A stretch of DNA of 57,200 bases from a virus (IMGVR_UViG_3300032331_001209:1-57200); one strand, 5' to 3'. Shown: positions 3,044 to 35,802, counted from the stretch's first letter. Program-made: numbers and translations. The notes: generated from the letters alone by a model not told the origin.

Positions 3044-3068
3044 GGGCATTCCTCTCACATCCCGCAGA

Positions 3069-4991: not shown

Positions 4992-5385
4992 GCTTCGACA
5001 GGAGGGTGGGCTTGAAGTACAAGTCGCGCTCGACCAGCGGGAGCCCGCGACGGTTCGCGTTCTCCAGTTCCGACAGGGAGATGTAGCCGAGCTCACCACC
5101 ACCGTGGCCGAGGTCCGCCCAGCCAAACATCTCGTCCGCCCCGTCCCACTCGGTGATGTACCAAGTCGCCCCGCTGTACGGGGAGAAGAGCTTGACGTAG
5201 GCGATGGGGTCCGCGACGTTCTCCTGCGCCCGCATCCGAGGGACCTTCACGCCCTTGGGCATGAGGGTGTGCTTCCGCACCCGGTCGAGGGGCGACGCCG
5301 CTTCCTTCAGCAGCGGAAGAAGGTGGGAGCGCAGCCCGGGCGTCTCGTGGGCGAGACGGATCAGCTTGGTGCGAAGGGTGGTCAC
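4981..5385 (-). CDS. Leader-bearing protein 2 with DUF2958-like domain
   Basis: AGGAG SD then GTG at 5385; leader TTLRTKLIRLAHETPGLRSHLLPLLKEAA; body VKLFSPYSGATWYITE...FGWADLGHGGGELGYISLSEL...VERDLYF resembles DUF2958. Confidence 0.8.
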   Translation of the reverse strand: MTTLRTKLIRLAHETPGLRSHLLPLLKEAASPLDRVRKHTLMPKGVKVPRMRAQENVADPIAYVKLFSPYSGATWYITEWDGADEMFGWADLGHGGGELGYISLSELENANRRGLPLVERDLYFKPTLLSKLTG

Positions 5386-8400: not shown

Positions 8401-8935
8401 TCGTCGCGAAGCCCGCGTGGGTCTTGCCGTCACCGCCGCCCGTGTACACACCGTCGAGCACGTTGAACGTGGGGTCCGTGGCCGCGTCCACGCCCGTCCC
8501 CGAGATGCCCGCGCCCGTGGCGTTGACGGGTGCCCGGTAGTAGTAGGGGTAGACGGCGCGGGCGTCCGCCGCTGGGTTGCCCGTGAAAGGGAGGATGCCG
8601 TCCCAGAGCTTGAGGATGCCCCAGTCGGGCACGCCCGAGTTGGTGCTCCCGAGCCACGCGACACCCGAGCTCCCCACACCACCCATCGGAGGCGGGATGA
8701 GCGCGGCGAGGTCGTCGAGGGACACTTGGACGTTCATCCCCGTGTACCTGTCGTACAGGTCCACGGTCGAGATGGCCGTCGCCGGGTGCGCCCCCGAGGG
8801 GTTGTCAACGTGCGCCGCCAGAGAACTCGACGCTGGACCCACCTCGCCGGGAGTGAAGGACGAGGGGCTGACCGAGCCGGGAGAGGCGAGGCCACCGCCC
8901 GTGAGGATGCCGAGGGGGTCATTGGTACGGGGCAT
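5429..8935 (-). CDS. Large virion structural protein (tail fibre/baseplate-associated)
   Basis: 1168 aa, G/A/T/P/V-rich; N-terminal AHVDNPSGAHPATAIS fibre-type motif; 2 nt downstream of 8938-12186. Confidence 0.7.
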   Translation of the reverse strand: MPRTNDPLGILTGGGLASPGSVSPSSFTPGEVGPASSSLAAHVDNPSGAHPATAISTVDLYDRYTGMNVQVSLDDLAALIPPPMGGVGSSGVAWLGSTNSGVPDWGILKLWDGILPFTGNPAADARAVYPYYYRAPVNATGAGISGTGVDAATDPTFNVLDGVYTGGGDGKTHAGFATISVGGSTIGFPSWNIMSAVADPAAVVSGIVSPADRGVLALVKWPSGENPQPSAAASVADVQNVVVAAVLLGKGILDNGCDGEPGGIFTEVSGGTRASAFITNNTNPAAPYQILVDLSGLPGGPAAPVTFTATAVAPTNAYEFQVLGSNILTSESFALALNNLYFPALIAALPTGGGTVKIIPVATGTVGNSISLLDLGTAPGDFTIVNGAGGTDAPASPYNFAGRAAGQYNLDEIHTGLSTTTGEDPFFNPAAGQVRLLTDPAAVTFSPATTLGGLPILGATDNAIGTATSLPGFSFSTGGGGTAGNFLAYRLPYLKDYSAASGLVYTPATEKSRFTSPIAPASVPFLDPAGDYDDFAADFWGFQLARYRHRFVLATGAAITRTDDSYALVHFKKEAYFENFAVNGVVPTNDQVYSVNLVKWTGVTPNYDVLQNLVEITTLPTASVASPVNRSEVIEDNSGMVTPTSVTLDVTYVNGGQLTFYSGIGYYVPIDRTTANDPNFGIDVLDLEVTNVFADSYRTHDVIPTGGTLAGDSRKYALNQNLAFLSLSPFSYEGTENPAAGGISSALPVFFGGLGEYRRQRIEFGYADVAGNSLDPFAPASPDPLRYTFSAAGNVLNSIRFSGDAVTPAFTTDAKARLFVRRLLDVDGTTGYPLPYSGGTGVPARGFTLANTTGKAVLFHSMREDNTAALVPYGNPDDVTRATLNAPKDVSERFLDEVYRYPVNWFPLGLPDNLQLQGPGLPSGPAPISVPVRPVNGDPNYPGWYFQGVNMVNLATVTVNELQVAGLPPRNPEYTEGLTSPFPSRGVLIYPQTNYAVGYAPAGLNYSVCVNDRAYNRAFDAGAGNAGASTVNFRLWGVDILDFQYTPPTAPGATGMAVMVKVPGLTTWMDAGRPDGAGPSKQDLALDGAGCLVTSATGTDTASQIHYTDITVNLSPAALFINGEGKCPVLVKIIIKVNVTGKALNFANVSATFATSLCRGLVGIDINP

Positions 8936-11900: not shown

Positions 11901-12186
11901 GGCGGGAGAGGGCGAAGGTGTCAGCAGGAAACGCAGGGCTGAATCCGTAGTCCCCAAGCGCCGAGGTGATCCCCTGCCTACGGATGAACCCCGAGGGGAG
12001 CACCGAGCCCGAGAGAAGCACCCGGTTGTACTCGCTGGCGTCCTGCGAGAGGTTGAGCTCCGCGTCGAGGATCGGACGCCCCGCTTGGTACACCACCGCG
12101 TCCCACGAGTAATCGGCGGGCGTCAAGTCGCGGGATACCGACGAAGGGACGGCGGGGAGATTGAGATAGCGGTTGAATAGGGGCAT
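8938..12186 (-). CDS. Large baseplate/tail-fibre structural protein, paralog of 51185-56644
   Basis: N-terminal VVYQAGRPILDAELNLSQ; shares RTDFVFLEVW, RVQxQYRxRV, ALGTxDGxVYAIPxCxVFRRN and DILDxRR blocks with the 1819-aa protein. Confidence 0.75.
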   Translation of the reverse strand: MPLFNRYLNLPAVPSSVSRDLTPADYSWDAVVYQAGRPILDAELNLSQDASEYNRVLLSGSVLPSGFIRRQGITSALGDYGFSPAFPADTFALSRLLANVAGMPVVVEYTNTTTAGQNLITLPPADPSSGLPPDIKRTDFVFLEVWRAQVAPSPRAYGYVQIANAPFSISAGDTVTLNTGAIGGPTVTFTAVVGVPGANQFQIGANADVTGINLAAAIDASALYPNFAVANAHSSSIVQITAGAGGAVGNGVTLARAEAVLGSIVLSGPNLTGGADRPNKPTQDTIYRHGNVESPSGVDLADNLVDPALNQESTQRVQVQYRLRVYGDVLLGVSPKTQPDGFSNISVLAQGTQGAPVAGYPFVPADGSTINLNSDASAYGFVDNGLYIAGDGSSGAATALGTADGFVYAIPVCFVFRRNDASLTGGFNPTTNVNGGISASHLGFNNTHLDSAGPVAIVATKSDRPDGLFHDLISAVDILDLRRHVTPPGYDYASELKAQTQSLLDATNLTWQVDASDMGTIGSGSGGQSTTPMVCDEVARFGDPNANVFGKRIRGFDHIARRFGSQPVVERVVFEVLPNAGPYPTGFTVVNASLTGWTEGDTIALDFGALLTSSLQDWTVAPAPNTVAGSWPVGTRVTDVLVSYHDDGHSTVPVNQEVQFSSVTGVGTNVVTVTLDANLQTVNVPGSGTVLVDVAPGGNGSRRRVFLELEVTYPTGAGLTRTPRAALTPDTGTGYAPYDGGAIVQYDAAQRPTEMDPVWVPRPKFRVPFREVLLEQKSNSITDTLVTRSTGMFASIVITPRRIQTLTGLTVDGNPPVSVTLGSSERKITSNPAAGAQVPVVVNYVPQDPIPDAGTGYRLDVYYQTTAPQTCGVQTGAVPTSLLPEGLVLEPLSVSNHLWTAQTGAGSAELAFPYAVPLDPIPTPNVGLVFPQEWYFAATATVSVSDFSADTGSLTLHSMVPMDGSDLVTLGSAVAGRGTAIDAEFRAFYDYANHLGYKPTAMTQPLSGAVRHKTFTTMLARVPSTGVTSLLFRPGELVLVVFSRFAALDPDNKVAVADPLIGPPVSVVGVFRTKNLLLSAGN

Positions 12187-14324: not shown

Positions 14325-14696
14325 TCACCTTGGGGTCATGCCACTGGGAACTTCCCAGCCTCGCACGAAGTCCTCCCAGTAACCGGGTTGCCACCGAGCG
14401 ATGTAAGGCAGAGCTTTCGTGACGAGCTCCTTCCGTGCGTCCGCCTCTGAGGCAAACAGAACGGGGGTGTCGTCTCTCGAAAAATCCATCGAGTGCTTCC
14501 AGCCATCCCCCGTCCAGAGAGTCTCCCCCTTCCGAGTGACCAGCTTGATCGCGTAGGTGCGGTCAGCCTTCGACCACAGGGAGACGCTGGGGTTGGTCGT
14601 GACTGCCGCCGTCTTGAGGAGGGGTAGGAGATGTGGACGGAGAGCCGGATTGGCATGGGCCAACCGGATGACCTTGGATCGAAGATTGTCGCTCAC
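14325..14696 (-). CDS. Leader-bearing protein 3 (leader + small unknown domain)
   Basis: GAGG SD; begins MSDNLRSKVIRLAHANPALRPHLLPLLKTAA. Confidence 0.8.
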   Translation of the reverse strand: MSDNLRSKVIRLAHANPALRPHLLPLLKTAAVTTNPSVSLWSKADRTYAIKLVTRKGETLWTGDGWKHSMDFSRDDTPVLFASEADARKELVTKALPYIARWQPGYWEDFVRGWEVPSGMTPR

Positions 14697-14734: not shown

Positions 14735-17700
14735 TCAGCCCCACACCTGTTGCTGGCTCCCGTCCACCCAGACGGTGACCACTCCCGGTGCCGCGCCCGT
14801 TCGCAGGACGAAGAGGGTCTCGCGGAAAGCGGTCCCGTTGTCGGTGCCGCGCACCACGCCCTCCGAGGGACCGACGGCGTAGAGCATCCGAGGTTCGGCA
14901 GTCGTCGTCGGAGACACCTGTCCCGAGAACGGCGCGACCACGCCCGTGACCGGGTTGGTGAACGAGTAGGTGCCGAGCACGCCGCCGTTGAAACCGTTGC
15001 CCGACGCGAACAGGGCGTAGCGGTAGGAGCCGGGACGGACGCCCACGGGAGGGCGGATCATCCCCGAGTAGTTGTCGTTGAGGTAGCTGCCCGCGAAGGT
15101 GAACTCCGTCGTGCCCCACGTCCCGTCCGGGCCGGGGCCACCCTCGCAGTAGGCCGAGAGACGCCCGCTCTGCCCGCCGTTCCCGATCTGGAAGAACTCC
15201 AAGCGTTCGTACAGGTACTCCGGGTCGTCGTCGAAGCGGCGCACGAGGTACTGGTCTCGGAAGCCGTAGTCGGGGTCGAGCGGGACGGCAGTCCCCACCG
15301 GGGCGGGGAGGGCTGGCGTCGGGCCACCGTCTCCCGAGGCCGTCGAGGCGATGTCCGTGGGGATCGTCAGCGTGGGGGTCGTGGTGCCCGTCTGGGACTG
15401 CTGGAACGTCGGCGTCCCCTCGTTCAGAATCGTCTGCGACTCTGGGAACGGTTGCGTCTGGAGGTAGGTGTTGGTGACGGGCCGCGCCGGGGCGAACACC
15501 ACGTTCACCGGGTGGTTCCGGGTCGGCAGGGCCACCGAGAGCGTGATCTCTTGGCTGTCCTTGTTGAACCGCCAGAGGTTCTGCGGGAGGGTCACACCGT
15601 CCACACGCACGGCGAACACCCGGTCCGCGAAGATGTGGCACGGTCGGAGCGACACCCGGAACAGGGTGACGCTGGACACCACCACTTCTTGAGGCGTCGT
15701 GTCCTTGAGGTAGTCCCCCGAGGTGATGACGTTCCAGCGGTTGAGGACCATCCCCTGCGGCGCGCTGTAGTCCACCGAGGTGTTGGTGAACACCCGGTAC
15801 CGCACGTCGTCCCACGTCGAGAGCACCGAGCCCGAGGGATTGAGGGCACCGAAGCGTGCCGCCCCAAACTTCTCCGTGGGGGTCACCCTCGGGAGCTTGG
15901 GATACTCCAGCCGCACCCACCCGGCACTTGGGTCCATTGACTGCGTGGCGAAGTCCCCCGTGTACCCGGGAGGAGCCGTGAGGTCGGGACGGATGAGCGC
16001 CGCGCCGAAGGTCGGGTCGAGGAACACCCGCACCCAGCACCGGGCCGTCCAGTCCATCGAGGTGATAGTCGAGGCGGGGTCGCTGTTCGGGACGTTCATC
16101 CCGTCCGTGCGAGGCAGCACCCAGTTGTCGATGTCTCCCTCGTCGCCCCCGGCGTGAAGGCCCATCGTGCGGTAGAGGTCGGGAATCCCCTCGTCGGTGC
16201 CGCCGTAGCAGACGCTCCGAAGAGAGGCGTTGAACGTCCCGCCTGCCGGGGCGTCGTAGAGAACTTCGACTTGGCCCCCGCCGCCACCGAAGGCGGTGAC
16301 GAGCACCGTGGCTTGGAGCGTCCCCTCGATGAACAGGTCAATCGTGCCCGCCGCCACGTTGTGGACGAGTCGGTAGGTCCGAGCCTCACCATCCTCCCAC
16401 GGGATTGTTACGACGACGACTGCGCCTCCGTTGGGGGCAGGAGAGAGGACAACACCCGTGGCCCGGAAGTCGAGGTACACGGCGTTGCCGCCGAAGGTGC
16501 CAGCGAAGGCGAAGCCACACCGCCCAGACCCATCGAAGGTGTAGCTCGTGATGGCGACGCGGAACTCCAAGAACCGCCCGACGCACGGTGAGTAGTGGGG
16601 CACCAGCGTGCGTTGGAACGACCAAGCGTTCGCCCCGTCCCCCACGAGGAGCATCTCCGGGCCGTTCGGGAAGGCGTTCCCCGCGCTGCCACTCCACCCC
16701 TGTTGGTAGTACGGGATGGAGCCCACCAAGGATACCGTGTCGAGGCGGTAGATGAGCTTCCCGAGGACGCCACGGTCTTGGTACCGAAGGGTCGCCACTC
16801 GCGCCTCGCGGTGCGTGTCCCGAAGCACGAGGGTCGCACCTCCCACGCCCGCTGTGTCTCGCTCCACGGCGAACTTGCCGTCGAGCGCGGAGACGCGCCG
16901 CCCATTGAGGAACGGGTCCGTGTACCCGTAGCCGTAGGAAGTGCCGAGCCCTGCATCCGCCGGGGTGCTGGTGATCGCTACGGTGTCTCCCGATGCCCGG
17001 GTGTCTCCGAAGGGCGTGGCGAGGTACCAATCCCCGTACTCCGGGTCCGTGGCCGTCCCCGTGAAGCCCGAGGGCACCAAGCGTCCGCCGCTGACCGACG
17101 TGACCGTGATGTTGCCACCGGGAGAACCACTGGCGTTCGTCGCAAGAGTGACGATGGACGCCGCGCTCGTGGCCGACAGGTAGTTGGGGGCGAGGATGCT
17201 GGCGTTGATCGCCGCTGCCAAGTTCTCGGTGGTCTCGGCCACCGACGCCCCGATGGCGAAGTTGGTCCCCGCCGTGAGCGTGACCACCGGGCCAAACAAC
17301 GGTGCCGCCGAGGCGTCGATGGTGACGGTGTCCCCGGGAAGGGGCACGGAGACCCTCACCGTGGCCTTGGCCCACTGGGCGTCCACCACCGTCCCGCGAG
17401 AGTAGGTGTACGCGCCGTCGGGCTGGCTCGCCCCACGGACGAAGTCCCACACGGTCCCGTTGACCGCCGCCCGGTCGATGCTCCCCCATACCATGCGGCC
17501 ATAGCCCTCTGGGAGGATGTCCGGGCCGAGGTAGGCGGGGGAGGCCACGATGCTCGTCCCTACCGAGGTGGTCGAGCCGGATTTGCCGCCGAAGACCACG
17601 GAGACTGACTGACTGCGGGTGTTCGCGTACATGCGCCACGTCGAGAGACCCGTGTCCCAAGCCGTGTCGAAGTAGAGGGTCACGTCCCGGTTGCCGAGCA

Positions 17701-20398
17701 GTTCGGGGTTCGCCGGGAACATGGGGGAGACCACCAAGTAGGTGATGCCCTTGGAGGACTGGTAGTAGTCCTCGACCGTGTAGACACCCGTCTGCGTGCC
17801 CGTGAGAACTTGGAACTTGTCGCCCACGGACAAGAGCGTCGGGAGGCTGGACGTGGGAGCGGTCACCACGCCCTGCGTCGCACCAAACTCCGGGGGCTGG
17901 ACCTGTCCTTCGACGGACGGCCCCACCTTCCACGAACCCACGTCGGAAAGCTCACCCGGTCGGAGGAGAATCCCGATGTGACGGAGCACTTCGCCCGTCA
18001 GCGGATTCGGCACCCGCAGTGCGCCCGTGAAGAACAGCCGTTGGTTGTTGTGGAAGCCGAAGCCCACGCCCGTGAACACGCCGTCGGGCGTGTCGGTCAG
18101 CACTTGGAGACGCGCGGCCATCGAGATGTTCGTGCTGGTCGCCAGCGGGAAGTCCCGCTTCCAGTACGCCACCGTCGGGCCATTGTCGTTGAGGGTGTAG
18201 TAGCCGTCCGCCGAGACGAAGCTCTGGACGTTGCCCACGGCCACCCACGGGTACGGAGGGAACGTGTCGCCCTCAAAGCGGATGCTCTGCGGGGATACGT
18301 CGGCCACGGCGTAGGGGACCGAGGTCCGCCCCGGCGCTTGGTTGAGCAGCAGCGTCGTCGGGGAGTTGAGCCCTGCCGTGTAGCCCTTCTCAAAACCGAT
18401 GAACCGATGGGCGATTTGGAGCGCAGGGGGGCGACGGTTGAACCGCCCGAGGGTCACGCCCATCTGGAAGCGTGTCGAGGGGAGGCCCCCGTACAGGCCC
18501 GAGGACGGCTCCAGCACCGTGGTGGTCGCGTTCCGGCCACGGCGCAGGGACCACTTGTTGAGCGTGAGCCCCTTGGTGTTGAGGCCCTTCAGTCCCTCTA
18601 CGGGGCTGGGGAACCAGTTGTAAGAAACATTCACCGTGTGCGCCAACGGAGCGAAGCTCGTGATGGGCGCGGCGAGGGTGATGACTCCCGTGTACGGGTT
18701 GACGGCGCTCACCGCGACGGGTGACCCGTCGTACAGCACCGTCACGTCCGCCACTTCTGCCGGGGTGCCATCGCCCCAAGGCTTCACCAGCGGGCCGAGG
18801 GACGTGGACAGGGAGTCGAAGGTCAGCACCCCGTCCCCGTAGAACTGGATGCTCACGTCCTCGTTGGACACCGGGATGGGCACCCGCACGCCGAGGCGAT
18901 CCACCTCGACGGTGTAGGAGATGCCCGTGCCGGGGGTCATGATGCGAGGGAGCACCCGGAGGTAGGACGGCGAAGGTCGCACGGACGTGCTGGGTCCGAG
19001 GGGCAGGAGCCCGCCCGTGAAGCCCACCGGGCCACCGTTGAGGCCGAGGAGCGTTTCCAAGAGGTACGTCCCGGCGTTCGGCCCAGCCGTCATCGTGAGG
19101 GTCTCGCCCTCGACGCACAGGGCGAAGTTCTGGGAAGTGTCCGTGAACGCCCCGGCGCTCACCGTGGCGTAGCCCGTCAAGCCCGTGGGAAACGTGGTGT
19201 ATGCACGCGGCACCGGGTCGTCGCCGTAGGGGAAGGCCCGCACCGCTGTCACCCGGTAGCGGTTCTCGCGGGGGAGGTGCGAGGACGGGGCCGGGGTCGG
19301 CACCACCGGGATGACGAGCTCCGCGCCCACTCGCACCGAGCGAAACGAGAGGGTCGGGTCGTGGAACAGGTAGCGGTCGGCCCCCACCTCGCCGTTCGTG
19401 CTGGTGAGGGAGCGAATGCCCGAGCAGTCGTGCCGAAAGTCCTCGTAGTAGTACGAGGCCATGTCCATCGAGAGCAACTGGTCGGTGATGAGCCCCCGGA
19501 GGTTCTCGCGGAACAGGTTGCGATACTCGTACAGGGTCGCTGCCGGATCGAGGGCTTGCAGGACGAGGGCGACGTTGCGCTGGAGGACGATGGGGAGGTC
19601 GGGGAACGCCGACAGGAGGTCGTGCGTGTGCGGAGCTTGGCCCGTGCCCGCCGCGTCGATGACCACGAAGTCCACGATGCTGTGGTAGTGGGCGGGGCCA
19701 CTCCCCGAGGCGTACACCGGGTCCACCGTCTGACCGTTGCCGAGCGCGTTGACGTAGACGGTGTGGTAGTGCTCCGTGACGGAGATCGCCGTCGTCGAGA
19801 GGGTGCGGTTGTACTTCTCGACGCTCACCTCAAAGGTGAACTGGTCGGCCATCGTCCAGAGCACCCCCGGCTCCGAGAGGAAGTTGACCTTCTGGAGCAG
19901 GGTGATGTTGGCGTCCGTGAGGGCTTCTAGGCCCCGCACCAGCGTCACGGCCTTGCTCCCTTGGAGGAGCAGGGCGACCATGCGCTTCAAGAACTCGCGG
20001 TAGCTGATGTCCCCGTCAATCTGGGGCAGTCCCTCGTTGGCCGAGTCGGGGAACACCAACGTGGCGAGGAACTGAAAGAGTACTTCCGGGCGGGTGAAAT
20101 CGTAGTCGTTGTCCTCGTAGGCGTCGGCCAAGAGAACTTGGATCTTGGCGAGCTCCTCCGCGACGGCTTGGAACTGCTGGACGTAGTACGGACCCTTCGC
20201 CTGCGCGACGTAGTTGCTGGGCAGCGAATTGAGAAACACCCGCACGATCTGGTCGGCCAGCGTCCGCACGCGGTCGAGGTCGATCTGCCCGTGGAGGTTG
20301 AACGGCGCGGGGTTCTGCGGTTCCGGCCCGTAGGCGAACGGCGGGAAGAACCTATACAGGCCGAGGATGCTGGGCTGCGCCGGGAGCTTCACGGTCAT
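14735..20398 (-). CDS. Very large baseplate wedge/tail protein (tail-I-like N-terminus)
   Basis: 1887 aa downstream of baseplate J; DISYREFLKRMVALLLQGSK...GLEAL wedge-like motif; HYH/HYH/HTH cluster; beta-rich C-terminal domains. Confidence 0.7.
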   Translation of the reverse strand: MTVKLPAQPSILGLYRFFPPFAYGPEPQNPAPFNLHGQIDLDRVRTLADQIVRVFLNSLPSNYVAQAKGPYYVQQFQAVAEELAKIQVLLADAYEDNDYDFTRPEVLFQFLATLVFPDSANEGLPQIDGDISYREFLKRMVALLLQGSKAVTLVRGLEALTDANITLLQKVNFLSEPGVLWTMADQFTFEVSVEKYNRTLSTTAISVTEHYHTVYVNALGNGQTVDPVYASGSGPAHYHSIVDFVVIDAAGTGQAPHTHDLLSAFPDLPIVLQRNVALVLQALDPAATLYEYRNLFRENLRGLITDQLLSMDMASYYYEDFRHDCSGIRSLTSTNGEVGADRYLFHDPTLSFRSVRVGAELVIPVVPTPAPSSHLPRENRYRVTAVRAFPYGDDPVPRAYTTFPTGLTGYATVSAGAFTDTSQNFALCVEGETLTMTAGPNAGTYLLETLLGLNGGPVGFTGGLLPLGPSTSVRPSPSYLRVLPRIMTPGTGISYTVEVDRLGVRVPIPVSNEDVSIQFYGDGVLTFDSLSTSLGPLVKPWGDGTPAEVADVTVLYDGSPVAVSAVNPYTGVITLAAPITSFAPLAHTVNVSYNWFPSPVEGLKGLNTKGLTLNKWSLRRGRNATTTVLEPSSGLYGGLPSTRFQMGVTLGRFNRRPPALQIAHRFIGFEKGYTAGLNSPTTLLLNQAPGRTSVPYAVADVSPQSIRFEGDTFPPYPWVAVGNVQSFVSADGYYTLNDNGPTVAYWKRDFPLATSTNISMAARLQVLTDTPDGVFTGVGFGFHNNQRLFFTGALRVPNPLTGEVLRHIGILLRPGELSDVGSWKVGPSVEGQVQPPEFGATQGVVTAPTSSLPTLLSVGDKFQVLTGTQTGVYTVEDYYQSSKGITYLVVSPMFPANPELLGNRDVTLYFDTAWDTGLSTWRMYANTRSQSVSVVFGGKSGSTTSVGTSIVASPAYLGPDILPEGYGRMVWGSIDRAAVNGTVWDFVRGASQPDGAYTYSRGTVVDAQWAKATVRVSVPLPGDTVTIDASAAPLFGPVVTLTAGTNFAIGASVAETTENLAAAINASILAPNYLSATSAASIVTLATNASGSPGGNITVTSVSGGRLVPSGFTGTATDPEYGDWYLATPFGDTRASGDTVAITSTPADAGLGTSYGYGYTDPFLNGRRVSALDGKFAVERDTAGVGGATLVLRDTHREARVATLRYQDRGVLGKLIYRLDTVSLVGSIPYYQQGWSGSAGNAFPNGPEMLLVGDGANAWSFQRTLVPHYSPCVGRFLEFRVAITSYTFDGSGRCGFAFAGTFGGNAVYLDFRATGVVLSPAPNGGAVVVVTIPWEDGEARTYRLVHNVAAGTIDLFIEGTLQATVLVTAFGGGGGQVEVLYDAPAGGTFNASLRSVCYGGTDEGIPDLYRTMGLHAGGDEGDIDNWVLPRTDGMNVPNSDPASTITSMDWTARCWVRVFLDPTFGAALIRPDLTAPPGYTGDFATQSMDPSAGWVRLEYPKLPRVTPTEKFGAARFGALNPSGSVLSTWDDVRYRVFTNTSVDYSAPQGMVLNRWNVITSGDYLKDTTPQEVVVSSVTLFRVSLRPCHIFADRVFAVRVDGVTLPQNLWRFNKDSQEITLSVALPTRNHPVNVVFAPARPVTNTYLQTQPFPESQTILNEGTPTFQQSQTGTTTPTLTIPTDIASTASGDGGPTPALPAPVGTAVPLDPDYGFRDQYLVRRFDDDPEYLYERLEFFQIGNGGQSGRLSAYCEGGPGPDGTWGTTEFTFAGSYLNDNYSGMIRPPVGVRPGSYRYALFASGNGFNGGVLGTYSFTNPVTGVVAPFSGQVSPTTTAEPRMLYAVGPSEGVVRGTDNGTAFRETLFVLRTGAAPGVVTVWVDGSQQQVWG

Positions 20399-23777: not shown

Positions 23778-24877
23778 CAGTAGTTCCCCAGAGACAGGCG
23801 GTTGGTTCCCGGCAACGCGAACGTCCCCGGGGCCGTGTACACGATGGAAATGGTCACGGGTTCAGACGAGTAGTTCCGCACGTCCACCTCGATGAGGAAG
23901 GTCGTGGGATCACTGGGAGATTGTGCCACGGCGATGTTGTCCACGGAGAAAAGACGCTCCTTGGCCGTGACCCGCTGGTACTTGGACTGGGCGTTCTGGA
24001 GGTTCTGGAGCGTCGTGAGGGCTTGGTTGACCGACTGCTTCAGCCCGATGGCCGTACCGCCCAGCACCTTGCTACCAATGCTGGCCGCGAGGTTCGACCC
24101 GTACCAAGGCTGGTAGATGTTCGACCCGAGCTCCGTGAGGATCATCTTGAGGCACATCTGGTAGAGGAGATTCTCGTCCTCGACCACCAGTGCCTCCCCC
24201 TGCGCGTCGAAACGGAAGTCGTTCTCGACCTCCGTGGTGAGGCATCGCAGGCACAGGTTCGGAGCCACGGGATACGACACCGTGAAGTACACACCCTGCT
24301 TGACAGGGGCGTTGAACCCGATGTAGTAGCCGAGGGAGTCCACGGCGTCTTCGGGGTTGACGACGCTGCGAGAGTAGAGCCTCCACGGGGGGATCACCGT
24401 TTTGCCACGGTCGCCGCTCTGCTGGTCGAAGCCCAGCGCCTCCAGCGCCGAGCCAGACAGTTGGACCTTGGAGGTCGGGCCGGGGTCCGCCGTGTCCGTG
24501 ATGACGAGGTACCCGTTGGGAGACGTGACCGTCACCAACCCCTTCACCGCCGACGTGATGGCAGCGGACACCTGCGCCGCCGACAGGTACCCCGGCGAGA
24601 AGTTCACCGCCGCCGTCCCAACCCCCGTGGTCACCACCAAGGTCCGCGTGGCGACGGTGACCTTGTAGGGCTCGCGGCGGTACGACTTCACCGAGGCAGG
24701 GGTGACCAGCCCCGTGTAGGGAGAGACAGGCGTGCCGTCGTTCGCCCGCACCACCACCAGCGTCGGTCCTGCGATGGGCTTGGACGTGTACAGCGTGCGT
24801 CGGTCATCCCCGAGGGTGACCCTCTCCTCACCGATGATGTGAGGGCAGGGATAAGCCAGACAAATATCACGAGACAC
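23777..24877 (-). CDS. Baseplate wedge protein with C-terminal gp25/GPW-like domain
   Basis: AGGAG SD then GTG at 24877; LYQMCLKMILTELGSNIYQPWYGSNL...IG matches the gp25 'L.T..G....P.YGS' motif. Confidence 0.8.
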   Translation of the reverse strand: MSRDICLAYPCPHIIGEERVTLGDDRRTLYTSKPIAGPTLVVVRANDGTPVSPYTGLVTPASVKSYRREPYKVTVATRTLVVTTGVGTAAVNFSPGYLSAAQVSAAITSAVKGLVTVTSPNGYLVITDTADPGPTSKVQLSGSALEALGFDQQSGDRGKTVIPPWRLYSRSVVNPEDAVDSLGYYIGFNAPVKQGVYFTVSYPVAPNLCLRCLTTEVENDFRFDAQGEALVVEDENLLYQMCLKMILTELGSNIYQPWYGSNLAASIGSKVLGGTAIGLKQSVNQALTTLQNLQNAQSKYQRVTAKERLFSVDNIAVAQSPSDPTTFLIEVDVRNYSSEPVTISIVYTAPGTFALPGTNRLSLGNY

Positions 24878-25664
24878 GGGGTTTCTCCTGCGCCTTTCGC
24901 GCTTGGGCTTCCCGTCGATCCTGCGTCCACGGAACCCCTTTTCGGGCACGAGACATAGCGGCCTTGTGCTCGTCGGAGAGGGTTCGGCCCAGCATCTTGA
25001 TGCGTTGCTCCTCTGGGAAGGGCTTACCTTTCTTGGCGTTGCTAACTTTCAACCGCACGTCATCCGTGCGGGGCACCCCCCGTCGAGCCTCCGCAGCGGC
25101 AATACGGGCGGGTGATTGGGGCTTGCCTTTGAGGGCTTTGCTGATGGCCTCACGCTTTTCCGGGGGCATAGGCCCCCGGGGAATACCCTTCTGTGCCGCA
25201 CTGATCTTGGCCTTGGTTTCGCTTGAGTGAGGACCCCTTTTCTTGCCGAGGTGAGCCGCCTTCATCTTGGACAGAGTATCGGGGGAACGATTGCGAGACG
25301 CTTCACCGATTTTTCGACGGGCCTCCTCATCAGGCGTGTACCCGTGGAAGCTACCAGCCGTAGGGAGAGTGTTCAGCCCACGGGTCGCCGCTTGGAAAGT
25401 GTCGAGGTAATGCTGCTCCCTAGACTCTAGGTCGGAGGGGTCGGTGACCTCTTCCAGAACCTCAAACGAAAAATGGCACCCGCCGTACAGGTCCCATGCC
25501 TTCTGAAGTTTCGGAGGACCACTTCCCTCGCTCAACGATTTCAAGTGGTCGTACCACCTCCCCTTGATTCTCCTAGACTGACCGACGTACACACGTCCGT
25601 CAGCCTTGCATCGAATGATGTAAATGCCCATTTTCGGGGGGTTGGGATGGACCGTGGGGGACAT
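24867..25664 (-). mobile_element. Free-standing GIY-YIG homing endonuclease with NUMOD3-like repeats
   Basis: GIYIIRC...VYVGQS...RWYDH...LESREQHYLD...GLN catalytic domain, then repeated HSSETKAKISAAQKG-type units; visibly more AT-rich than its flanks. Confidence 0.88.
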
Positions 25665-28047: not shown

Positions 28048-28527
28048 TCAGCTTCCAGCCAGATAATCGCGCAGCCGATCACCCACCAACTTGGCAATGT
28101 CCGCACCCAGTTTCGGGACGGACACATGAGACCAGTAGTTGTTGAAGTACTTCAGCGGGACTTTCACCGCGACGTTCTTCCCGCCACGCCCAAAAGTGTA
28201 CTCCACCGTGTAGTTCTCTGTGGTGTCAACATCGACCCAGATGTAGTCGTTGCCTTTGGGGTCGTCAGAGAAGTACCCCACGATCTCCAACTTCAGCGAG
28301 TTGGGGATGAGGTTCAGGGCGTCAAACCTGAGAACCCCCCTGAACCCTGCATCCAATTGGTTGAGGATGGCGTTGCCAAGGTCGCGGGTCAGATTCTTTT
28401 TGGCACCGTAGAGAGAATCGGCGTCGGGTGCTGCCGTCTTGGTGAGGAGGGGCATGAGGTGCGAACGGAGCTCCGGGTTGGTGTGAGCCAGCCGGATGAT
28501 CTTGGAACGGAGTGCTTGGTCGCTCAT
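28048..28527 (-). CDS. Leader-bearing protein 4 (leader + AT-richer unknown domain)
   Basis: Begins MSDQALRSKIIRLAHTNPELRSHLMPLLTKTAA. Confidence 0.8.
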   Translation of the reverse strand: MSDQALRSKIIRLAHTNPELRSHLMPLLTKTAAPDADSLYGAKKNLTRDLGNAILNQLDAGFRGVLRFDALNLIPNSLKLEIVGYFSDDPKGNDYIWVDVDTTENYTVEYTFGRGGKNVAVKVPLKYFNNYWSHVSVPKLGADIAKLVGDRLRDYLAGS

Positions 28528-28559: not shown

Positions 28560-28574
28560 GATAGTCGGTCAAAC
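28560..28574 (-). promoter_or_regulatory. Putative late promoter (GTTTGACCGACTATC)
   Basis: Motif family member overlapping the stop codon of the 967-aa gene. Confidence 0.55.
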
Positions 28575-31472
28575 GAGGTTCGGCCAACCGTCGAGGGCGG
28601 CGAGGATCTTCTTGGCGGCGGTCTCCCCGTCCGTGACCTTCACGGGCTTGGCGGGGGCGTTCTCGTTCGTGCGGTCGATCACCGTGAGGTAGACCGAGGT
28701 ATCTCCCAGCGTGCTCTGGGTCAGCAAGAACTGCTGGTACTCGGGGAGGCCCGCCTCGACGTGCTCGGGCAGCGGGTACGCCGTGAGGTACACGTCGAAC
28801 ACCATCGCGTCCACGGTGCGGTCGCCCAGCTTGGCCGGGGCGAAGTGCGGGTGGACGGTGACCGACACGCTGTTCGGGTAGTTCAAGGCTCCTCGCACCG
28901 TCTCCCGCGCCTCGGTGGAGATCAGTCGGAGATCCTTGGGCATGATCTTCTGCGAGAGCGCCGAGAGCACCTCCCGCGCCTGTGCCCGGAACGCCTCAAA
29001 CCGCTCGTAGAGCATCTGGGCGTCCCGCAGGGCCATGCTGACCGTGGCGTCGCCGGGGTGCTGGACGAGGTAGGTGCGGCAGTGGGCGATGACGCGCTCG
29101 GCGTGTCGCATCCCATGCTCAGACTTGGCGAACACCTCCGTCTGCGAGTGCAGGGTGAGCGCCGCGATGCGCCCGACGATGGGCATCGGCACCGTCTCCG
29201 CGTAGGTGTCCAGCACCGCTTGGATGTCCGACGCCAGTGCCTCCAGCGTCTCCACGTCCCCGGCGATGACCTCCAGCGGATCGGGGGCCTTGGTGTGCTG
29301 GGCAACGACACGACGGACAGACGCAGTTCTCATGAGAGGCTCCTCGCAGGACGCAGGAGGCGGGTCTTGCCGCCCCTTCCAGAACACGGTGACGACTTCG
29401 ACGCGCCCGTTGTCCGTGGCGAATACCACCTTCAGCCGGGTCTTGGGGTCCACCCACTCGATCTTGTCCTGCGACAAGAGGGCCTCGTACTCACGAGGGT
29501 CTCGTTGCTGGAGCCCCTGCGCGTAGGCGATGAACGAGTTGAGGGCTCCCGCCACGTCCCTCACCGTGATGGACCTGTAGTCCATACGGAACTGGGCGTG
29601 GGGCAGGATCGTGAAGCTCTTGAAGCCAGAGCCCGATTCGGTGGTCAGCGGGTAGACCTTCCGGGCGTCTTGGTTCGTGAGGTCGCCCGTCTCGGCATCC
29701 TCGACGAGGTCTTCCCGCAGCCCCGGGTTGCGGATGGCGTTGTTGATGCGCTCCACCACCTTGCAAGGGCCACCGTTGACTCCCAAGGGAGGCGAGAGGT
29801 CCGCCGTCTTGCGTGCGGCGGCGAAGTCCGCCGATGCCTTCAAGAGAGACTCCGACAGGGGGCTGAACACGGGGGCGAACCCCGACTCGATCACTTCCAT
29901 GCGGAGCGCCCCGAGGACACCCGCAAGCCTCCTCGTGAAGGCGGACAGGTCCCCCTCTTGGTACGCATCCTCGGCCAGATCCAGCGCGTGGCCCGAAGCC
30001 GAGAACTTTCCGGGCTTGAGTTGCGGAGGGGAGAATGCGAGCGCGTCGTTGACCAGACCCCCGGCCCGCTGAAGCTCCCCCGGGGGCACCCCAAGGGACT
30101 TGGACAGGAACAGGAGCTCCTTGAGAAACCGTGTGAGGGCCGTGGCGAACTTGTCAGATGTCACTCGGGCCTTCTGTACGGCCAAGAAGTTCAGCGCGAG
30201 CGGTGAAAACTCTACTCCGACACTGGCCGTCTTCTTGGCCTTCTCGTCGGCGGTCTCCATCTGCTTCTTGACCTTCTCGGCCCACGCTCGTCCGGGGTCG
30301 CCACCCCAGATCAACCACGAGACGTTGCCCTTGTCGTTCCAAGGCTCGCCCTTGTGCTCGGGGGCGACGCCCTTGTTCTTCTCGTGGCGGGAGAAGAACG
30401 CCGTCATCTGCTTGATGGTGTCGGGCGAGATATTGTCCCGGTTCTTGAGGTTCACGGCCCGCTGGACGCCACTGCCGATGCCCTGCTTCGCGGCTTCCGC
30501 AGGGGTGAGCCCGCCCTTCTGCGAGGGCGATGCCTTCTCCCGGTACTCCAAGCCCTTCTCGGCGGCGTCAGCGACCGACTGTGGGGGCTTGAAGTCGATG
30601 TGCTTGTACTTCTCGGGCACGTCGGCGGTGACCCGTCTGGACGCCATTTTCACAGGTTCGACCCTCGGGTAGCGGAACTCCCAGTGACCGGGGTGATCCG
30701 GGTGGACTGCGATGGGGTCACCGATGAACACCGGGTGGTCGGTCTCGTCGAACACGAAGTCGAGGTCGGGCGGATAGACCACGAGGATCATCGACCCCCA
30801 CTCAAAACGGCCCACCTCGTCCACGGCCCGCACCGTGTCACCCACCGCGACGCTGCACTGGAAGTCTTGGATGGTCTTCTCACCGATGCAGCACAGGAAC
30901 ACCCGCCCGAAGCGCGTGCCAAGCTGGATGACCGTGACGTTGTTCCGCCCGAAAGGGTCCGTGTCCGAGGCGAAGCGGTAGACGCCCTGCACGACGCCAC
31001 CGATGGGTGCATAGACCCGGTGGCAGTCGTGGAGGTACAGGCTCATCTTGATGAACTTGTGCCCGCCGACGGACGGCTCCAAGAACTTCAGAGCCTCAAG
31101 GACGTTCGCCCTGCCCTGCTTCAGTTCGATCAGACCGTCGCCCACCCTTCCCGTGTACTCGATCTTGCCCTCGGCGGGAGAGCACAGGTCGGCGTGCTGG
31201 GCCATCTTCCTCGACGCCAGAAGCGTCTCCGGGGTGGGCGTCCGAAGGAACCAATCGTGGAAGGTGCGGTAGTCCGTGGGGAAGAACACGGAGCGCGGGA
31301 CGGTGTAGCCGCCCTTGGCGCTCATCCAATCCGCCAGACGGTTGAAGTCGATGCCCACGCTGTCCCGGCGAGCCCCCAAGTCACGGAGGTTGCGGAACAC
31401 CTCTTGGACGAGCTCGTGAGAGACGAGGTCCGGGTTCTGATACAGGGGCGTGAGCGGGTCGCGCATGGTCAC
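28569..31472 (-). CDS. Multidomain polyprotein-like protein: phosphatidylserine decarboxylase-like + phage head 'WGG' domain + DUF4258/RelE-like + unknown domains
   Basis: SPAEGKI...YLHDCHRVYAP...DEVGRFEWGSMI (PSD-like); FKPPQSVADAAEKGL...FFSRHEKNK...WLIWGGDPGRAWA; PHAQFRMDYRSIT...LKVVF...VVTVFW. Confidence 0.75.
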   Translation of the reverse strand: MTMRDPLTPLYQNPDLVSHELVQEVFRNLRDLGARRDSVGIDFNRLADWMSAKGGYTVPRSVFFPTDYRTFHDWFLRTPTPETLLASRKMAQHADLCSPAEGKIEYTGRVGDGLIELKQGRANVLEALKFLEPSVGGHKFIKMSLYLHDCHRVYAPIGGVVQGVYRFASDTDPFGRNNVTVIQLGTRFGRVFLCCIGEKTIQDFQCSVAVGDTVRAVDEVGRFEWGSMILVVYPPDLDFVFDETDHPVFIGDPIAVHPDHPGHWEFRYPRVEPVKMASRRVTADVPEKYKHIDFKPPQSVADAAEKGLEYREKASPSQKGGLTPAEAAKQGIGSGVQRAVNLKNRDNISPDTIKQMTAFFSRHEKNKGVAPEHKGEPWNDKGNVSWLIWGGDPGRAWAEKVKKQMETADEKAKKTASVGVEFSPLALNFLAVQKARVTSDKFATALTRFLKELLFLSKSLGVPPGELQRAGGLVNDALAFSPPQLKPGKFSASGHALDLAEDAYQEGDLSAFTRRLAGVLGALRMEVIESGFAPVFSPLSESLLKASADFAAARKTADLSPPLGVNGGPCKVVERINNAIRNPGLREDLVEDAETGDLTNQDARKVYPLTTESGSGFKSFTILPHAQFRMDYRSITVRDVAGALNSFIAYAQGLQQRDPREYEALLSQDKIEWVDPKTRLKVVFATDNGRVEVVTVFWKGRQDPPPASCEEPLMRTASVRRVVAQHTKAPDPLEVIAGDVETLEALASDIQAVLDTYAETVPMPIVGRIAALTLHSQTEVFAKSEHGMRHAERVIAHCRTYLVQHPGDATVSMALRDAQMLYERFEAFRAQAREVLSALSQKIMPKDLRLISTEARETVRGALNYPNSVSVTVHPHFAPAKLGDRTVDAMVFDVYLTAYPLPEHVEAGLPEYQQFLLTQSTLGDTSVYLTVIDRTNENAPAKPVKVTDGETAAKKILAALDGWPNLV

Positions 31473-31555: not shown

Positions 31556-32530
31556 CTAGTAGCGGCGCGATAGGCGGGCAAACTTCTGGGCGACGCGGGT
31601 TGGGTTGGGGGCGAGGTACCGGGAGGCCACTCGGGAGGCGAGCTTCACGGGCTCGACGCCCTTGCGGACGAGACCCGTCTTGGGGCTGACCTCGACCACT
31701 TCCTTGCCGCCGTTGCGGTAGCTGAACACCCGCACGGCGATCTTGGGCTTGTAGCCCTCGGGCAGGCGGTCCTCCAGCCCCCCGTAGTCCATCTTGCCGG
31801 GGATGACGTAGAAGTCCAACTCTCGGTCGGTGAGGTTCATCACCATCTGCGAGGTCGTCGCCATCGTGTCCACGTCCCGCACAGGGTCATTTTGCGTGCG
31901 CGGCCCCTCGGAGCGGTTCTTCATGAGGTCCGGGCCAAGGTCCGTGGGAGCCTTGCTCTGACGGAGGATCTGGGTGGCCTTCTCCTTCCGCGCCGCCGAG
32001 GACAGGTAGCCCTCACCGTCGGTGTAGCCCGTCCCGCCCGTGTCGCGCCCGTGGTTGGTGCGGACGTGAATCTCGCTCCCGTCCAAAGGCTTGATGATGC
32101 AGTCGCCGTTGATGAGCTCGACGGAGAACGCCCGGTTGGGGTCGCTCACGAACGAGTGACCTTCCAGCCCACCAAGGTGGGAGCACAGCGAGTCGATGGC
32201 TTCCTTGACCGTCTCGCACGCGAGAGCCTTGAGGATGCGTGCCCCGTCGAGGGACTTGCCCTTCTTGCCCTTCTTGTCCTCGACGGCCTTGCCCATGCCC
32301 TCGGCCTCGTCGAGGCCCACGGCGAGCGCCGCGTTGGCGATCCCGATGCCGTACTCGTTGATGCCCTCGCACCAGCCCGTGACGCTGTCGCGCATGTACG
32401 CGACCTCGACACCGTCGAGAAGTTCTCGGACGATGGTCACCCTCGGGATGTACTTGCGGTCGCGGTTCTTGAGAAGCGACCGCTTCCCGTCCCACACACC
32501 AGCAGCAATGACGCAAGCGAGTCTGTCCAT
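31556..32530 (-). CDS. Ntn-hydrolase (peptidase C45/C69-like)
   Basis: MDRLA-CVIAA...LLKNRD...EGINEYGIGIAN...HVRTNH; Cys nucleophile at residue 6. Confidence 0.82.
   Translation of the reverse strand: MDRLACVIAAGVWDGKRSLLKNRDRKYIPRVTIVRELLDGVEVAYMRDSVTGWCEGINEYGIGIANAALAVGLDEAEGMGKAVEDKKGKKGKSLDGARILKALACETVKEAIDSLCSHLGGLEGHSFVSDPNRAFSVELINGDCIIKPLDGSEIHVRTNHGRDTGGTGYTDGEGYLSSAARKEKATQILRQSKAPTDLGPDLMKNRSEGPRTQNDPVRDVDTMATTSQMVMNLTDRELDFYVIPGKMDYGGLEDRLPEGYKPKIAVRVFSYRNGGKEVVEVSPKTGLVRKGVEPVKLASRVASRYLAPNPTRVAQKFARLSRRY
31569..31583 (-). promoter_or_regulatory. Putative late promoter (GTTTGCCCGCCTATC) inside the last codons of the Ntn-hydrolase gene
   Basis: Full match to the motif family, 25 nt upstream of the small ORF start. 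Confidence 0.55.
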
Positions 32531-34104: not shown

Positions 34105-35802
34105 CTAGTCCCCGTCGTCCTTGAACGTCGGCGTGTTCACGGGCTTCTTGCCCTTGGGGGCTTTCTCCTGCACCTTCATCTTCTCGCGGGCCTTGTCGGC
34201 GCGCTCCTTCTTGTCCATGTCGTGAGCCTTTGGCCGCGCCATGCACTTGAAGGGGGTCTTGCCGCCCCGGGTGAGGTCTTTCCATTCGGGGTCATCCGTG
34301 AGCGCCCCGCACGGGCCGAGGATGTCACCGGGCTGGTAGGTCTTCTTGGTGCCGTCCTCGCGGGTGATCGTGCGCTTCACGGGTGAGATCGCCACCCAAT
34401 CTCCCCACTGCGCCTCACCCGGTGCCTTGGACGCGCCCTGACCGTGGCCGCTGAACCACTCGTCTAGGCCCCCGTGCCCCACGTCTTTCTTGGCCTTGCC
34501 CTTGGCGGACAGGTAGAGGGAGGCCACGCGCACGGCACTCGCGAAACGGCCCCGGTCCTTCTTGGCGAGGAACGCCTTGAACCGCTCGATCTGATCGCGA
34601 GTCATGTCCCGGCCTAGAACGAAGTGCGCGAACACCTCCGCGAAGTCCTCCTCCGTGGTCGTACCCCCGTACTCCGACACGGCGGCGACTTCTTTGTAGA
34701 AGCTGTCGAATCGGGCGCGGTCCCCCGCATCCATGAACTTGAAGTAGTAGCGATGACCTAGCTCGTGGATGAGGAGCTCCACCATGAAAGGCTTGGGCTC
34801 CAAGTACACCACGACGTGGTCGGGACCGATCATGTAGTGAGCGCCAACGCCAAAGTGTTTGCCCAGCGGATTCTCCCCGCCGCACTTCGGGCATCCGACG
34901 AAGATCGGGCCGTACCAGAGGTCACCAAAGCCCTTCTGGTCGAGCAGCGCCTTGGCCTTCTGGAAGTAGGGGATGTAGTCGGACAGACCCCGGGGGTCAC
35001 CGGGATCGGGACGGTTGATGAGGTGTCGGTCAGGCTCGCCGTCGTACACGAGCTTGACCTTCCCGATGGTGTACTCCAGCAGGATCTCTTCGCTCTCAAA
35101 GGGCTGGTCGTCCGCGTACTTGCCCAGAAACGCCGTGATCGCCCGCAGGAGCTTGCCCGACAGGGTGTCCTCGACCTTGGCGAGCGTTTCCTTCGCTACG
35201 TCCTCGTAGCCCTTCAGCGCCGCGCCGAATGGGTCGGCGGGATTGACCCGCTCGTAGAAGCCCAGCACGGACCACTGTGGACCTAGCCGCGCGTCCATGT
35301 CGTAGGTCCGCGTGCCCGGTGTCATCGCGTCCAGTGTGTGCTGGAACTTCGACAGGTCGTCGTCGAGGAGTTCTCGCGCGGCCTTGAGCTCGTCGCGGAC
35401 CTTGACCTTCAGTCTCTCGATGATGCTGCCTTCGTACCCCTCACCGCGAGGCAGGAGCCCCTTCGTGAAGAACAGGTACTCCCAGAAACGATTGAGGTCT
35501 TTGTCGCGCAGGGTCTTGAAATGCGCGATGAGGTCTGCCAGCGAGGCGTAGCGGGGCTTGGGCGCGAAGGTCTTCTTGACCCATGCCCGTAGCCCCTTCA
35601 CCAGTGCGGGGTCGATCTGGGTGGTATTCCCGGCTGTCTTCTCCCACCCGCCGCCTTCGTCCTTGTAGAGGGCGAGGGCGTGCCCGACCGCGTAGGCAGA
35701 CGGCCACTTGGTGTAGCGAGACTTCGCTACATCTTGGCACTTCTCCCAGAGCTTGGGATTCGTGGGCTCGTTGTCGCCGTCTGCTAGGCGGGGGTTCATC
35801 AC
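34105..35802 (-). CDS. Multidomain protein: PSAYA domain + zincin metallopeptidase + basic C-terminal domain
   Basis: KWPSAYA...YKDEGGGW; IHELGHRYY...SEYGGTTTEEDFAEVF (HExxH plus downstream E); GGLDEWF...WVAIS...PCG...KCM. Confidence 0.78.
   Translation of the reverse strand: MMNPRLADGDNEPTNPKLWEKCQDVAKSRYTKWPSAYAVGHALALYKDEGGGWEKTAGNTTQIDPALVKGLRAWVKKTFAPKPRYASLADLIAHFKTLRDKDLNRFWEYLFFTKGLLPRGEGYEGSIIERLKVKVRDELKAARELLDDDLSKFQHTLDAMTPGTRTYDMDARLGPQWSVLGFYERVNPADPFGAALKGYEDVAKETLAKVEDTLSGKLLRAITAFLGKYADDQPFESEEILLEYTIGKVKLVYDGEPDRHLINRPDPGDPRGLSDYIPYFQKAKALLDQKGFGDLWYGPIFVGCPKCGGENPLGKHFGVGAHYMIGPDHVVVYLEPKPFMVELLIHELGHRYYFKFMDAGDRARFDSFYKEVAAVSEYGGTTTEEDFAEVFAHFVLGRDMTRDQIERFKAFLAKKDRGRFASAVRVASLYLSAKGKAKKDVGHGGLDEWFSGHGQGASKAPGEAQWGDWVAISPVKRTITREDGTKKTYQPGDILGPCGALTDDPEWKDLTRGGKTPFKCMARPKAHDMDKKERADKAREKMKVQEKAPKGKKPVNTPTFKDDGD

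Follow-up and report, generated by a model that had tools for sequence, protein, structure and literature searches.

The five-module, polyprotein-like phage protein P0001: K/R-x-A motifs at its joints as candidate head-maturation sites in a phage-G-like megaphage

The stretch IMGVR_UViG_3300032331_001209:1-57200, a 57.2-kb tailed-phage fragment of 65% G+C analysed here in full ('the window'), carries on its minus strand at 28569..31472 an open reading frame (ORF) that runs for 967 codons after a GTG start. Its product, P0001, is a chain of five modules with the motif K/R-x-A (Lys or Arg, any residue, Ala) at the joints between them. Because database gene calls for near-identical proteins begin at MRDPLTP, two codons past this GTG (for example P0002, 965 amino acids (aa), encoded on another contig, with 99% identity to P0001 at 100% coverage and the same architecture), translation more likely starts from the ATG at 31466, giving 965 aa. 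The window also encodes Baseplate_J, a sheath initiator, thymidine kinase, a GIY-YIG homing endonuclease, a family-A DNA polymerase, a DnaB-type helicase, a primase, an SNF2 helicase and PhoH. The features of P0001 are as follows, with a slash after the Ala of each candidate cut site.

30705..31472, minus strand: module A, residues 1-256, phosphatidylserine-decarboxylase-like (pyruvoyl-type), PF02666
30792..30797, minus strand: G226-S227, predicted self-cleavage and pyruvoyl-forming bond of module A, invariant in 4/4 aligned sequences
30624..30704, minus strand: linker 1, residues 257-283, VEPVKMA/SRRVTA/DVP
30624-30662, minus strand: linker 1 motif, residues 271-283, VEPVKMASRRVTA
30240..30623, minus strand: module B, residues 284-411, about 130 aa, phrog_2859 (E 5.1e-13)
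30219..30239, minus strand: junction 2, residues 412-418, AKKTA/SV
29817..30218, minus strand: module C, residues 419-552, all-helical orphan, low model confidence (pLDDT, see below)
29796..29816, minus strand: junction 3, residues 553-559, ARKTA/DL
29337..29801, minus strand: module D, residues 558-712, alpha/beta, pLDDT >85
29295..29336, minus strand: junction 4, residues 713-726, LMRTASVRRVVAQH, that is LMRTA/SVRRVVAQH
28572..29294, minus strand: module E, residues 727-967, three-helix bundle plus beta-sheet domain, usually C-terminal, …GW..L[VF]

Module borders were taken from a profile-free exhaustive search with P0001, which matched 3,383 library proteins at E ≤ 0.001; the best 150 of these 3,383 formed local match blocks at residues ~3–256, 284–417, 553–711 and 713–967. 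An AlphaFold model of P0001 from a 46-row alignment was confident for modules B (285–411) and D (560–711) and mostly so for E (728–967), with predicted local distance difference test (pLDDT) scores below 50 at 415–443, 524–559 and 712–727. Module A and linker 1 were modelled poorly (pLDDT <50 over 92–282) because the alignment is shallow there. Homology blocks and model segments agree on a chain of separable domains, as an earlier note on this DNA, made from the sequence alone, had proposed. Module occurrence, counted on 245 relatives, was 6 for A, 226 for B, 1 for C, 23 for D and 26 for E.

Module A passes the Pfam threshold for the phosphatidylserine decarboxylase family (PF02666, E 3.2e-15, 56.8 bits against a cut-off of 22, residues 72–241), as do the stand-alone homologues P0144 and P0210; such stand-alone homologues end near residue 254. 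The score against the NCBIfam equivalog, 29.4 bits, fell far short of its cut-off of 183. The motifs CSPxE101, H151-R152 and W225-G226-S227-M228 are invariant in 4/4 aligned sequences. In this family, self-cleavage at a Gly-Ser bond creates the pyruvoyl cofactor, and we take G226-S227 and H151-R152 of module A to correspond to the family's self-cleavage bond and catalytic His; module A has Glu where the family motif has Asp. Module A keeps the His-Arg and Gly-Ser motifs of the family, while differing from it in being embedded in a phage polyprotein.

Module B, modelled at pLDDT >90, has no Pfam family, and phrog_2859 is annotated as of unknown function. Module C, for which a Pfam scan gave no family, occurs among the relatives solely in the 99%-identical P0002. 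Module D was not assigned to DUF4258 (PF14076), since its score lies below the curated threshold (E 0.0018, 18.9 bits against a cut-off of 25, profile positions 3–71 of 71); two of seven other D-bearing proteins scanned (P0214 and P0188) likewise gave partial, sub-threshold matches to this family. Tandem double copies of module D are present in some relatives (P0214, P0239). Most 10-residue blocks of module E score pLDDT >75, with values <50 at 761–768 and dips near 840 and 940, and a family search with this module found none. Compared with solved structures, the P0001 sequence gave a single chance-level match (E 0.87), and the whole model gave nothing at E ≤ 0.001 by Foldseek against the PDB. 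A wide search with VIA-align returned generic three-helix-bundle matches to residues 727–844 only, with Z typical of helical models, and barely probed modules A–D; these searches led to no functional assignment for B, C or E.

Against a background of 13 loose [KR].A tripeptides in P0001, the strict motif [KR][TMVK]A[SAD] was observed four times, compared with 0.55 expected (P(≥4) = 0.0018, 20,000 protein shuffles), and the P1 Ala of all four copies falls inside the four inter-module segments, which comprise 111/967 residues (chance ~1.7e-4). Placement of the motif at the borders is far beyond chance, and all four of the (K/R)-x-A motifs quoted in the earlier note do stand at module borders. 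Since the pLDDT gaps coincide with all four strict motifs, these lie between confidently folded domains rather than within them; this is the outcome, for modules B, D and E, of the comparison of AlphaFold boundaries with motif positions that the note had put forward as a check. In linker 1, two candidate cut sites bracket a degenerate RVAxRYL-type peptide, and in junction 4 (pLDDT <50 over 712–727) a cut-site motif has an RVAxRYL-type peptide after it. One more match, to the looser [KR][TM]A, is RKMA at residue 89; it falls within the decarboxylase-like module, whose homologues do not keep it as such.

Relatives of P0001 exchange, split and fuse modules at these joints. In P0004, a Cys N-terminal-nucleophile (Ntn) hydrolase is joined to module B via VDPVKLA/ARVASRFITA/DVP, and B is joined straight to D via KKTA/DLSPPLG, module C being skipped at its two flanking KTA sites. 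P0005 likewise has KKTA fused directly to module D, and the joint of P0009 that corresponds to linker 1 reads VDPVKLA/SRYLRA/DVP. Over 118 distinct internal junctions upstream of module B, [KR]xA occurs no more than 3 residues from the start of B in 79 (background 6.7%), 14 others have the aromatic-[LIAM]-x-A ending of a tag, and Ala is found at positions −3 to −1 in 105; in the sequence logo of the region upstream of B, R/K stands at −5 in 63/120 junctions and A at −3 in 60/120. The signal persists where module B comes first. Ten of 43 distinct N-terminal forms begin within 3 residues of the site; the other 33 are extended further, and 21 of these retain a short peptide ending in [KR]xA, which speaks against a passive linker because nothing would favour keeping such a linker at an N-terminus. 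The start of module D, DLxPPLG, is preceded by Ala in 22/25 listed unique contexts, whatever lies upstream; the exceptions are Ser in 2/25 and P0021, which has Ala and then VL instead of DL. Many proteins terminate after D in an RVAARYL-type peptide, and a module that follows E is preceded by …TTKMA/A. The partners with which relatives combine module B include PolyA_pol, HAD_SAK, InPase, PAP2, LigT, topoisomerase IB, SOD, Ham1, C45 and inteins.

The same reshuffling can be followed at a single syntenic locus in the window, in L002 and in G002, a 266-kb IMG/VR record (59% complete by CheckV) whose gene order matches that of the window.

Window: Ntn-tag, then A-B-C-D-E
G002: Ntn-nucleotidyltransferase-tag, then B-D-E
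L002: one fused 1,289-aa chain

In the window, the Ntn hydrolase of this locus is a separate gene upstream of P0001.

31556..32530, minus strand: Cys-Ntn hydrolase (C45 / penicillin-V-acylase type), starting MDRLA/C at 32530
31613-31657, minus strand: C-terminal tag of the Ntn hydrolase, VEPVKLA/SRVASRYL…

The SRVASRYL tag is followed by a second basic tail, PTRVAQKFARLSRRY. The AlphaFold model of this protein (pLDDT 75.3) has its first strand at residues 6–13, beginning at Cys6, and Foldseek gave it 61 matches at E ≤ 0.001, including 2x1c (isopenicillin-N acyltransferase, E 2.1e-7), with bile-salt hydrolases and acylases making up most of them; its match to NCBIfam C45_proenzyme (E 1.5e-9) is under the cut-off. 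The usual long pro-region is missing, and the nucleophile Cys is preceded by MDRLA alone (MDKTA in relatives). Fusions of the hydrolase to the polyprotein occur in P0004, P0008, P0009 and P0011, and an internal copy has the context GKTA/CIIAAG (Cys context at residue 1138 of P0095); overall, [KR]xA/C is found in 6/7 distinct Ntn contexts. Cys-Ntn hydrolases require the Cys as a free N-terminus and, because this nucleophile follows [KR]-x-A, the scissile bond would lie directly after the Ala. Judged from these sequences, that register should hold whether the module itself or a head protease breaks the bond.

A second element ending in the motif is a leader peptide of ~30 aa, LRSK[LIV]IRLAHxxPxLRxHLLPLL, found on four minus-strand ORFs of the window that encode otherwise unrelated proteins (one of the four has DUF2958).

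~28387-28527, minus strand: leader copy
14559-14696, minus strand: leader copy
5251-5382, minus strand: leader copy
2909-3046, minus strand: leader copy
28048..28527, minus strand: downstream neighbour of P0001, 159 aa, leader at its N-terminus, …LLTKTA/APD

No family name was found for the leader (LRxKLIRLAHxxPxLRxHLLPLL), which matches 1,905 database proteins at E ≤ 0.001. As had been noticed from the sequence, the KTA of the joints repeats the end of the leader: three of the four window copies end in KTA (the fourth in KEA), and of the 131 copies tallied in the best 120 of the 1,905 proteins, 98 are followed by [KRQ]xA within 6 residues. Of these 131 copies, 66 lie in the first 30 residues, the remainder being internal or C-terminal, and 29 of the best 120 proteins have at least two copies. 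The leader is a portable tag. In LR745208.1 (485 kb), the scaffold-like gene and the capsid gene have a small leader-tagged ORF between them; a tblastn leader match near that capsid gene corresponds to this separate ORF. Neither P0001 nor the leader found a match in phage G as represented in the phage collection.

The RVAxRYL-type tag recurs in a 565-aa family-less protein of the window (34105-35802, minus strand), which has RVASLYL at residue 425 with Lys-rich stretches on both sides; its homologues in L002 and L003 have RVASRYL at the equivalent position. This protein is possibly another two-module cargo protein.

Capsid, portal and protease genes were not found within the 57.2-kb window, and G002 was for this reason used for a test of head genes, with the motif [KR][TMVK]A[SAD] fixed before G002 was inspected. 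Head genes were located with PHROGs on 124 of 208 called proteins (the 84 omitted were <170 aa, >1,200 aa or spanned two pieces), identifying a terminase, a portal, a 918-aa protease-like protein, a 508-aa acidic repeat protein and the major capsid protein. The 20 head-module genes carry 28 motifs against 5.2 expected, a roughly 5-fold enrichment, compared with 47 against 31.1 expected in the other 188 genes; the late-versus-early enrichment that the earlier note had suggested looking for is thus borne out in this syntenic relative. Nine of the motifs are in the 508-aa acidic, scaffold-like protein beside the protease, and another head-module protein has four. A leader-like stretch in the scaffold-like protein was dismissed, as the profile gave it no support.

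The G002 capsid protein has IKTA/AGRAKLA/AS at residues 20–30, and GRxKLA[AS]S is kept in 119/120 listed homologues. It shares 38% identity with gp27 of phage G (E 3e-62) and 47.6% with the capsid protein of Tunturiibacter phage Tunturi_5. The capsid protein of this lineage is very abundant in public metagenomes, where 1,936 proteins match it at E ≤ 1e-20, on contigs up to 473 kb; it is also strongly conserved, the best 120 of the 1,936 being at least 88% identical.

By BLASTP, the 918-aa protein is homologous to gp19 of phage G (E 5e-15). Self-trimming head proteases are expected to carry cut sites near both ends; [KR]xA[AS] stands at residues 43, 248 and 274 of the 300 of gp19 (KTA/A, KVA/S and KIA/S) and at 37 and 833 of the G002 protein. 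Phage G gp19 is named as head maturation protease in PMC12484599, and the parts of that paper drawn on here state no cleavage specificity for it. In the related virus records G001–G003, PF04586 (S78) and PF05065 had no match, and neither did PF03420 (Peptidase_S77) and PF07068, for which control genomes were equally unmatched. A LAGLIDADG-type intein splits the G002 gp19-type protein (L013:3071-5827) directly after a conserved SMGC, which is probably the active-site region.

Module B, too, is linked to head genes in other phages. Its gene lies between the portal/MuF gene and the capsid gene in four of five cultured phages inspected (Synechococcus phage S-CBS4, Vibrio phages 1.122.A and K389, and Limnohabitans phage DC31), while Salicola SCTP-2, the remaining one, is uninformative for its placement. 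ESM-Atlas clusters, which serve as leads only, show the B fold (template modelling score (TM) ~0.8, 117–126 residues) fused to portal, MuF, and Mu-like and S78 protease proteins.

Taken together, these data suggest that P0001 is a modular cargo polyprotein of a phage-G-like megaphage and that its joints are maturation sites cut in the head, a reading to which we assign a probability of roughly 0.55. Five independently folding modules would be joined by short disordered peptides bearing [K/R]-x-A with S, A or D as the next residue, some joints adding a small RVAxRYL-type peptide beside the motif. The phage's own head-maturation protease, the gp19 homologue, would recognise the motif and cut after the Ala. 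The chain would be loaded into the prohead, most plausibly via module B or the small RVAxRYL-like linker tags because P0001 is without the leader that its neighbours carry, and would there be cut into separate proteins, to be delivered with the DNA. The products would include an enzyme of the phosphatidylserine-decarboxylase type that, by the chemistry of its family, is predicted to cut itself at G226-S227.

A number of observations weigh against this reading. Each step from motif to cutting in the head, including the presence of P0001 there, draws on comparison with other proteins, and the P0001 gene sits between replication and baseplate genes, outside any head module. P0001 has no leader: the profile scores −3.6 bits at residues 12–19, no better than a chance match at 581–589, and the weak N-terminal echo of the leader that the earlier note had seen in YQNPDLVSHEL dissolves on inspection (BLASTP E = 22), the stretch also being unconserved in homologues of module A. 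The motif is not confined to head proteins, given its mild excess over expectation in the other 188 G002 genes and its occurrence in non-virion proteins of the window, for example at residues 334 and 357 of the DNA polymerase. Part of the signal at the joints may have other causes: K414-T415-A416 closes predicted helix H391–416 of module B, so that in the model part of the KKTA 'motif' may be B structure, the Ala preceding DLxPPLG could belong to module D, and 39/118 junctions upstream of B are without [KR]xA within 3 residues. On the head side, 84/120 listed homologues keep the first of the two motifs at the capsid N-terminus, KTA, phage G has A-L-A rather than K-L-A at the aligned capsid site, and the protease assignment in G002 is weak (phrog_18299, E 2.3e-8, no Pfam family). 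Moreover, Ntn hydrolases normally self-process, and the argument from their register therefore needs no head protease.

The placement of KKTA at the end of a module B helix would be natural if P0001 worked uncut, as a multi-domain polyvalent protein comparable to the N4 virion RNA polymerase, its joint peptides acting as tags for docking or packaging, as helix caps or as linkers, perhaps conserved as safe points for module recombination. Polyvalent proteins packaged or transferred uncut are documented (in the parts of PMC5512222 drawn on), and the tags also occur at true C-termini, where there is nothing to release. Recombination is irrelevant to head-assembly proteins, however, and it is in these that the motif is 5-fold enriched, with nine copies in the scaffold-like protein and others at the capsid N-terminus; nor would an uncut chain explain the [KR]xA peptides retained at the N-terminus in 21/33 extended B-first forms, or the Ntn module, which requires a cut exactly after K-T-A even when internal. 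We regard an uncut P0001 as rather doubtful, while still the main competitor to cleavage in the head.

Cutting might, alternatively, take place outside the capsid, by a host protease, another phage peptidase or self-processing, with the pieces acting in the infected cell and never being delivered. The position of the gene outside the head module and the missing leader are in keeping with this, as is the fact that two modules of the locus belong to self-processing families (the decarboxylase-type Gly-Ser and the Cys-Ntn hydrolase). Self-processing would account for those two bonds only, and not for the joints before B, D and E, while the clustering of the motif in G002 head genes and the linkage of B to the head module in 4/5 cultured phages point back to the capsid; cutting elsewhere is therefore considered unlikely. 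It is most improbable that the motifs are chance tripeptides in a protein rich in Ala, Lys and Arg, or that the ORF is an artefact of assembly or annotation. Loose (K/R)-x-A is indeed common, as its 13 occurrences in P0001 attest, but neither the number of strict motifs (P = 0.0018 for at least four) nor the location of all four in linkers (~1.7e-4) is expected by chance, the junction motif recurs in 79/118 distinct junctions of relatives, and an independent contig encodes the same 965-aa architecture in P0002.

If cleavage in the head is accepted, a broader and more tentative proposal can be made, which we think possible but would not favour: that a clade of abundant, phage-G-related freshwater megaphages uses a general 'tag-and-cut' grammar for its capsid cargo. 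A portable address (leader, RVAxRYL tag or module B) could direct any module, and a K/R-x-A/S or K/R-x-A/A head protease of undescribed specificity would release the modules and sometimes switch them on, exposing the Ntn Cys and freeing an injected, self-activating decarboxylase-type enzyme that would remodel host membrane lipids as infection begins.

The sites of other capsid-maturation proteases differ from the one proposed here: that of the T4 prohead protease is (L/I)-x-E, that of the phiKZ-like prohead proteases A/S/G-x-E, and that of herpesvirus assemblin (V/L/I)-x-A/S. Assemblin, a capsid-maturation serine protease acting on scaffold-linked substrates, cuts after Ala before Ser, but its P3 is aliphatic where P3 here is basic. 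In phage G, the gp27 capsid protein and the gp19 protease are homologous to the G002 proteins, and gp19 carries KTA/A, KVA/S and KIA/S. In T4, the capsid targeting sequence of IPI-III and Alt, removed by gp21 (PMC3012670, PMC9026906), is also a short N-terminal address peptide; it ends in a head-protease cut site, as the leader here ends in the candidate one, and the T4 cargo is injected with the DNA. T4 cargo nevertheless consists of single proteins with one leader each, cut at (L/I)-x-E and not at K/R-x-A, whereas here candidate sites lie between modules and tags may also be internal or C-terminal. Of these T4-type features, a motif common to the head-assembly proteins was found, in G002, and a leader on P0001 was not. 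In the phiKZ-like jumbo phages, one protease, such as SPN3US gp245, trims many head-packaged proteins at a short motif and removes propeptides (PMC5694885, PMC7411985, PMC10052503); their abstracts describe no module-by-module release from shuffled polyproteins, and both motif and capsid lineage differ from those of the P0001 lineage.

The polyvalent proteins of phages and conjugative elements (Iyer et al. 2017, PMC5512222) likewise combine many unrelated enzymatic domains in one phage polypeptide with extreme mosaicism, and the partner domains InPase, 2H/LigT and nucleotidyltransferase of the relatives are named in passages of that paper or its Pfam families. P0001 shares with them at least two unrelated domains in a phage polypeptide and mosaic architectures in its relatives. 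Packaging and delivery with the DNA have been proposed for polyvalent proteins, with release by a built-in zincin-type metallopeptidase and anchoring by MuF/portal fusions (same passages of PMC5512222); P0001 has no such peptidase, and is set apart by fixed K/R-x-A joints common to head-assembly proteins and by its small portable tags. In those passages neither 'linker' nor 'phosphatidylserine' occurs (0 occurrences each). Full-text searches of a limited literature library returned no K/R-x-A head-protease motif, none of these tags and no phage polyproteins cut at module joints. P0001 would then join two known themes, polyvalent proteins and the trimmed head cargo of T4- and phiKZ-type phages, and would stand apart in its motif, its protease lineage and its portable tags.

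Were the joints cut, heads would be loaded with interchangeable enzymes by a readable code, an address tag plus a K/R-x-A site, and this code would make cargo predictable from sequence across thousands of genomes of uncultured phages (1,905 proteins match the leader and 1,936 the capsid protein). The capsid-maturation protease would have a new specificity, polyvalent proteins would be resolved into active parts without a built-in peptidase, and the decarboxylase-type module would be unusual among enzymes delivered by phages.

Two further observations concern the surroundings of the locus. Several very large family-less ORFs are present in the window, among them four on the minus strand (1,082–1,887 aa) with no Pfam or PHROG match and few or zero K-x-A; their place next to the baseplate genes makes it probable that they encode tail or fibre proteins.

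5429-8935, minus strand: large family-less ORF
8938-12186, minus strand: large family-less ORF
14735-20398, minus strand: large family-less ORF
51185-56644, minus strand: large family-less ORF

The GIY-YIG/NUMOD3 homing endonuclease (24867-25664, minus strand) also lies beside baseplate genes, and overlaps the 3′ end region of the sheath-initiator-like gene.

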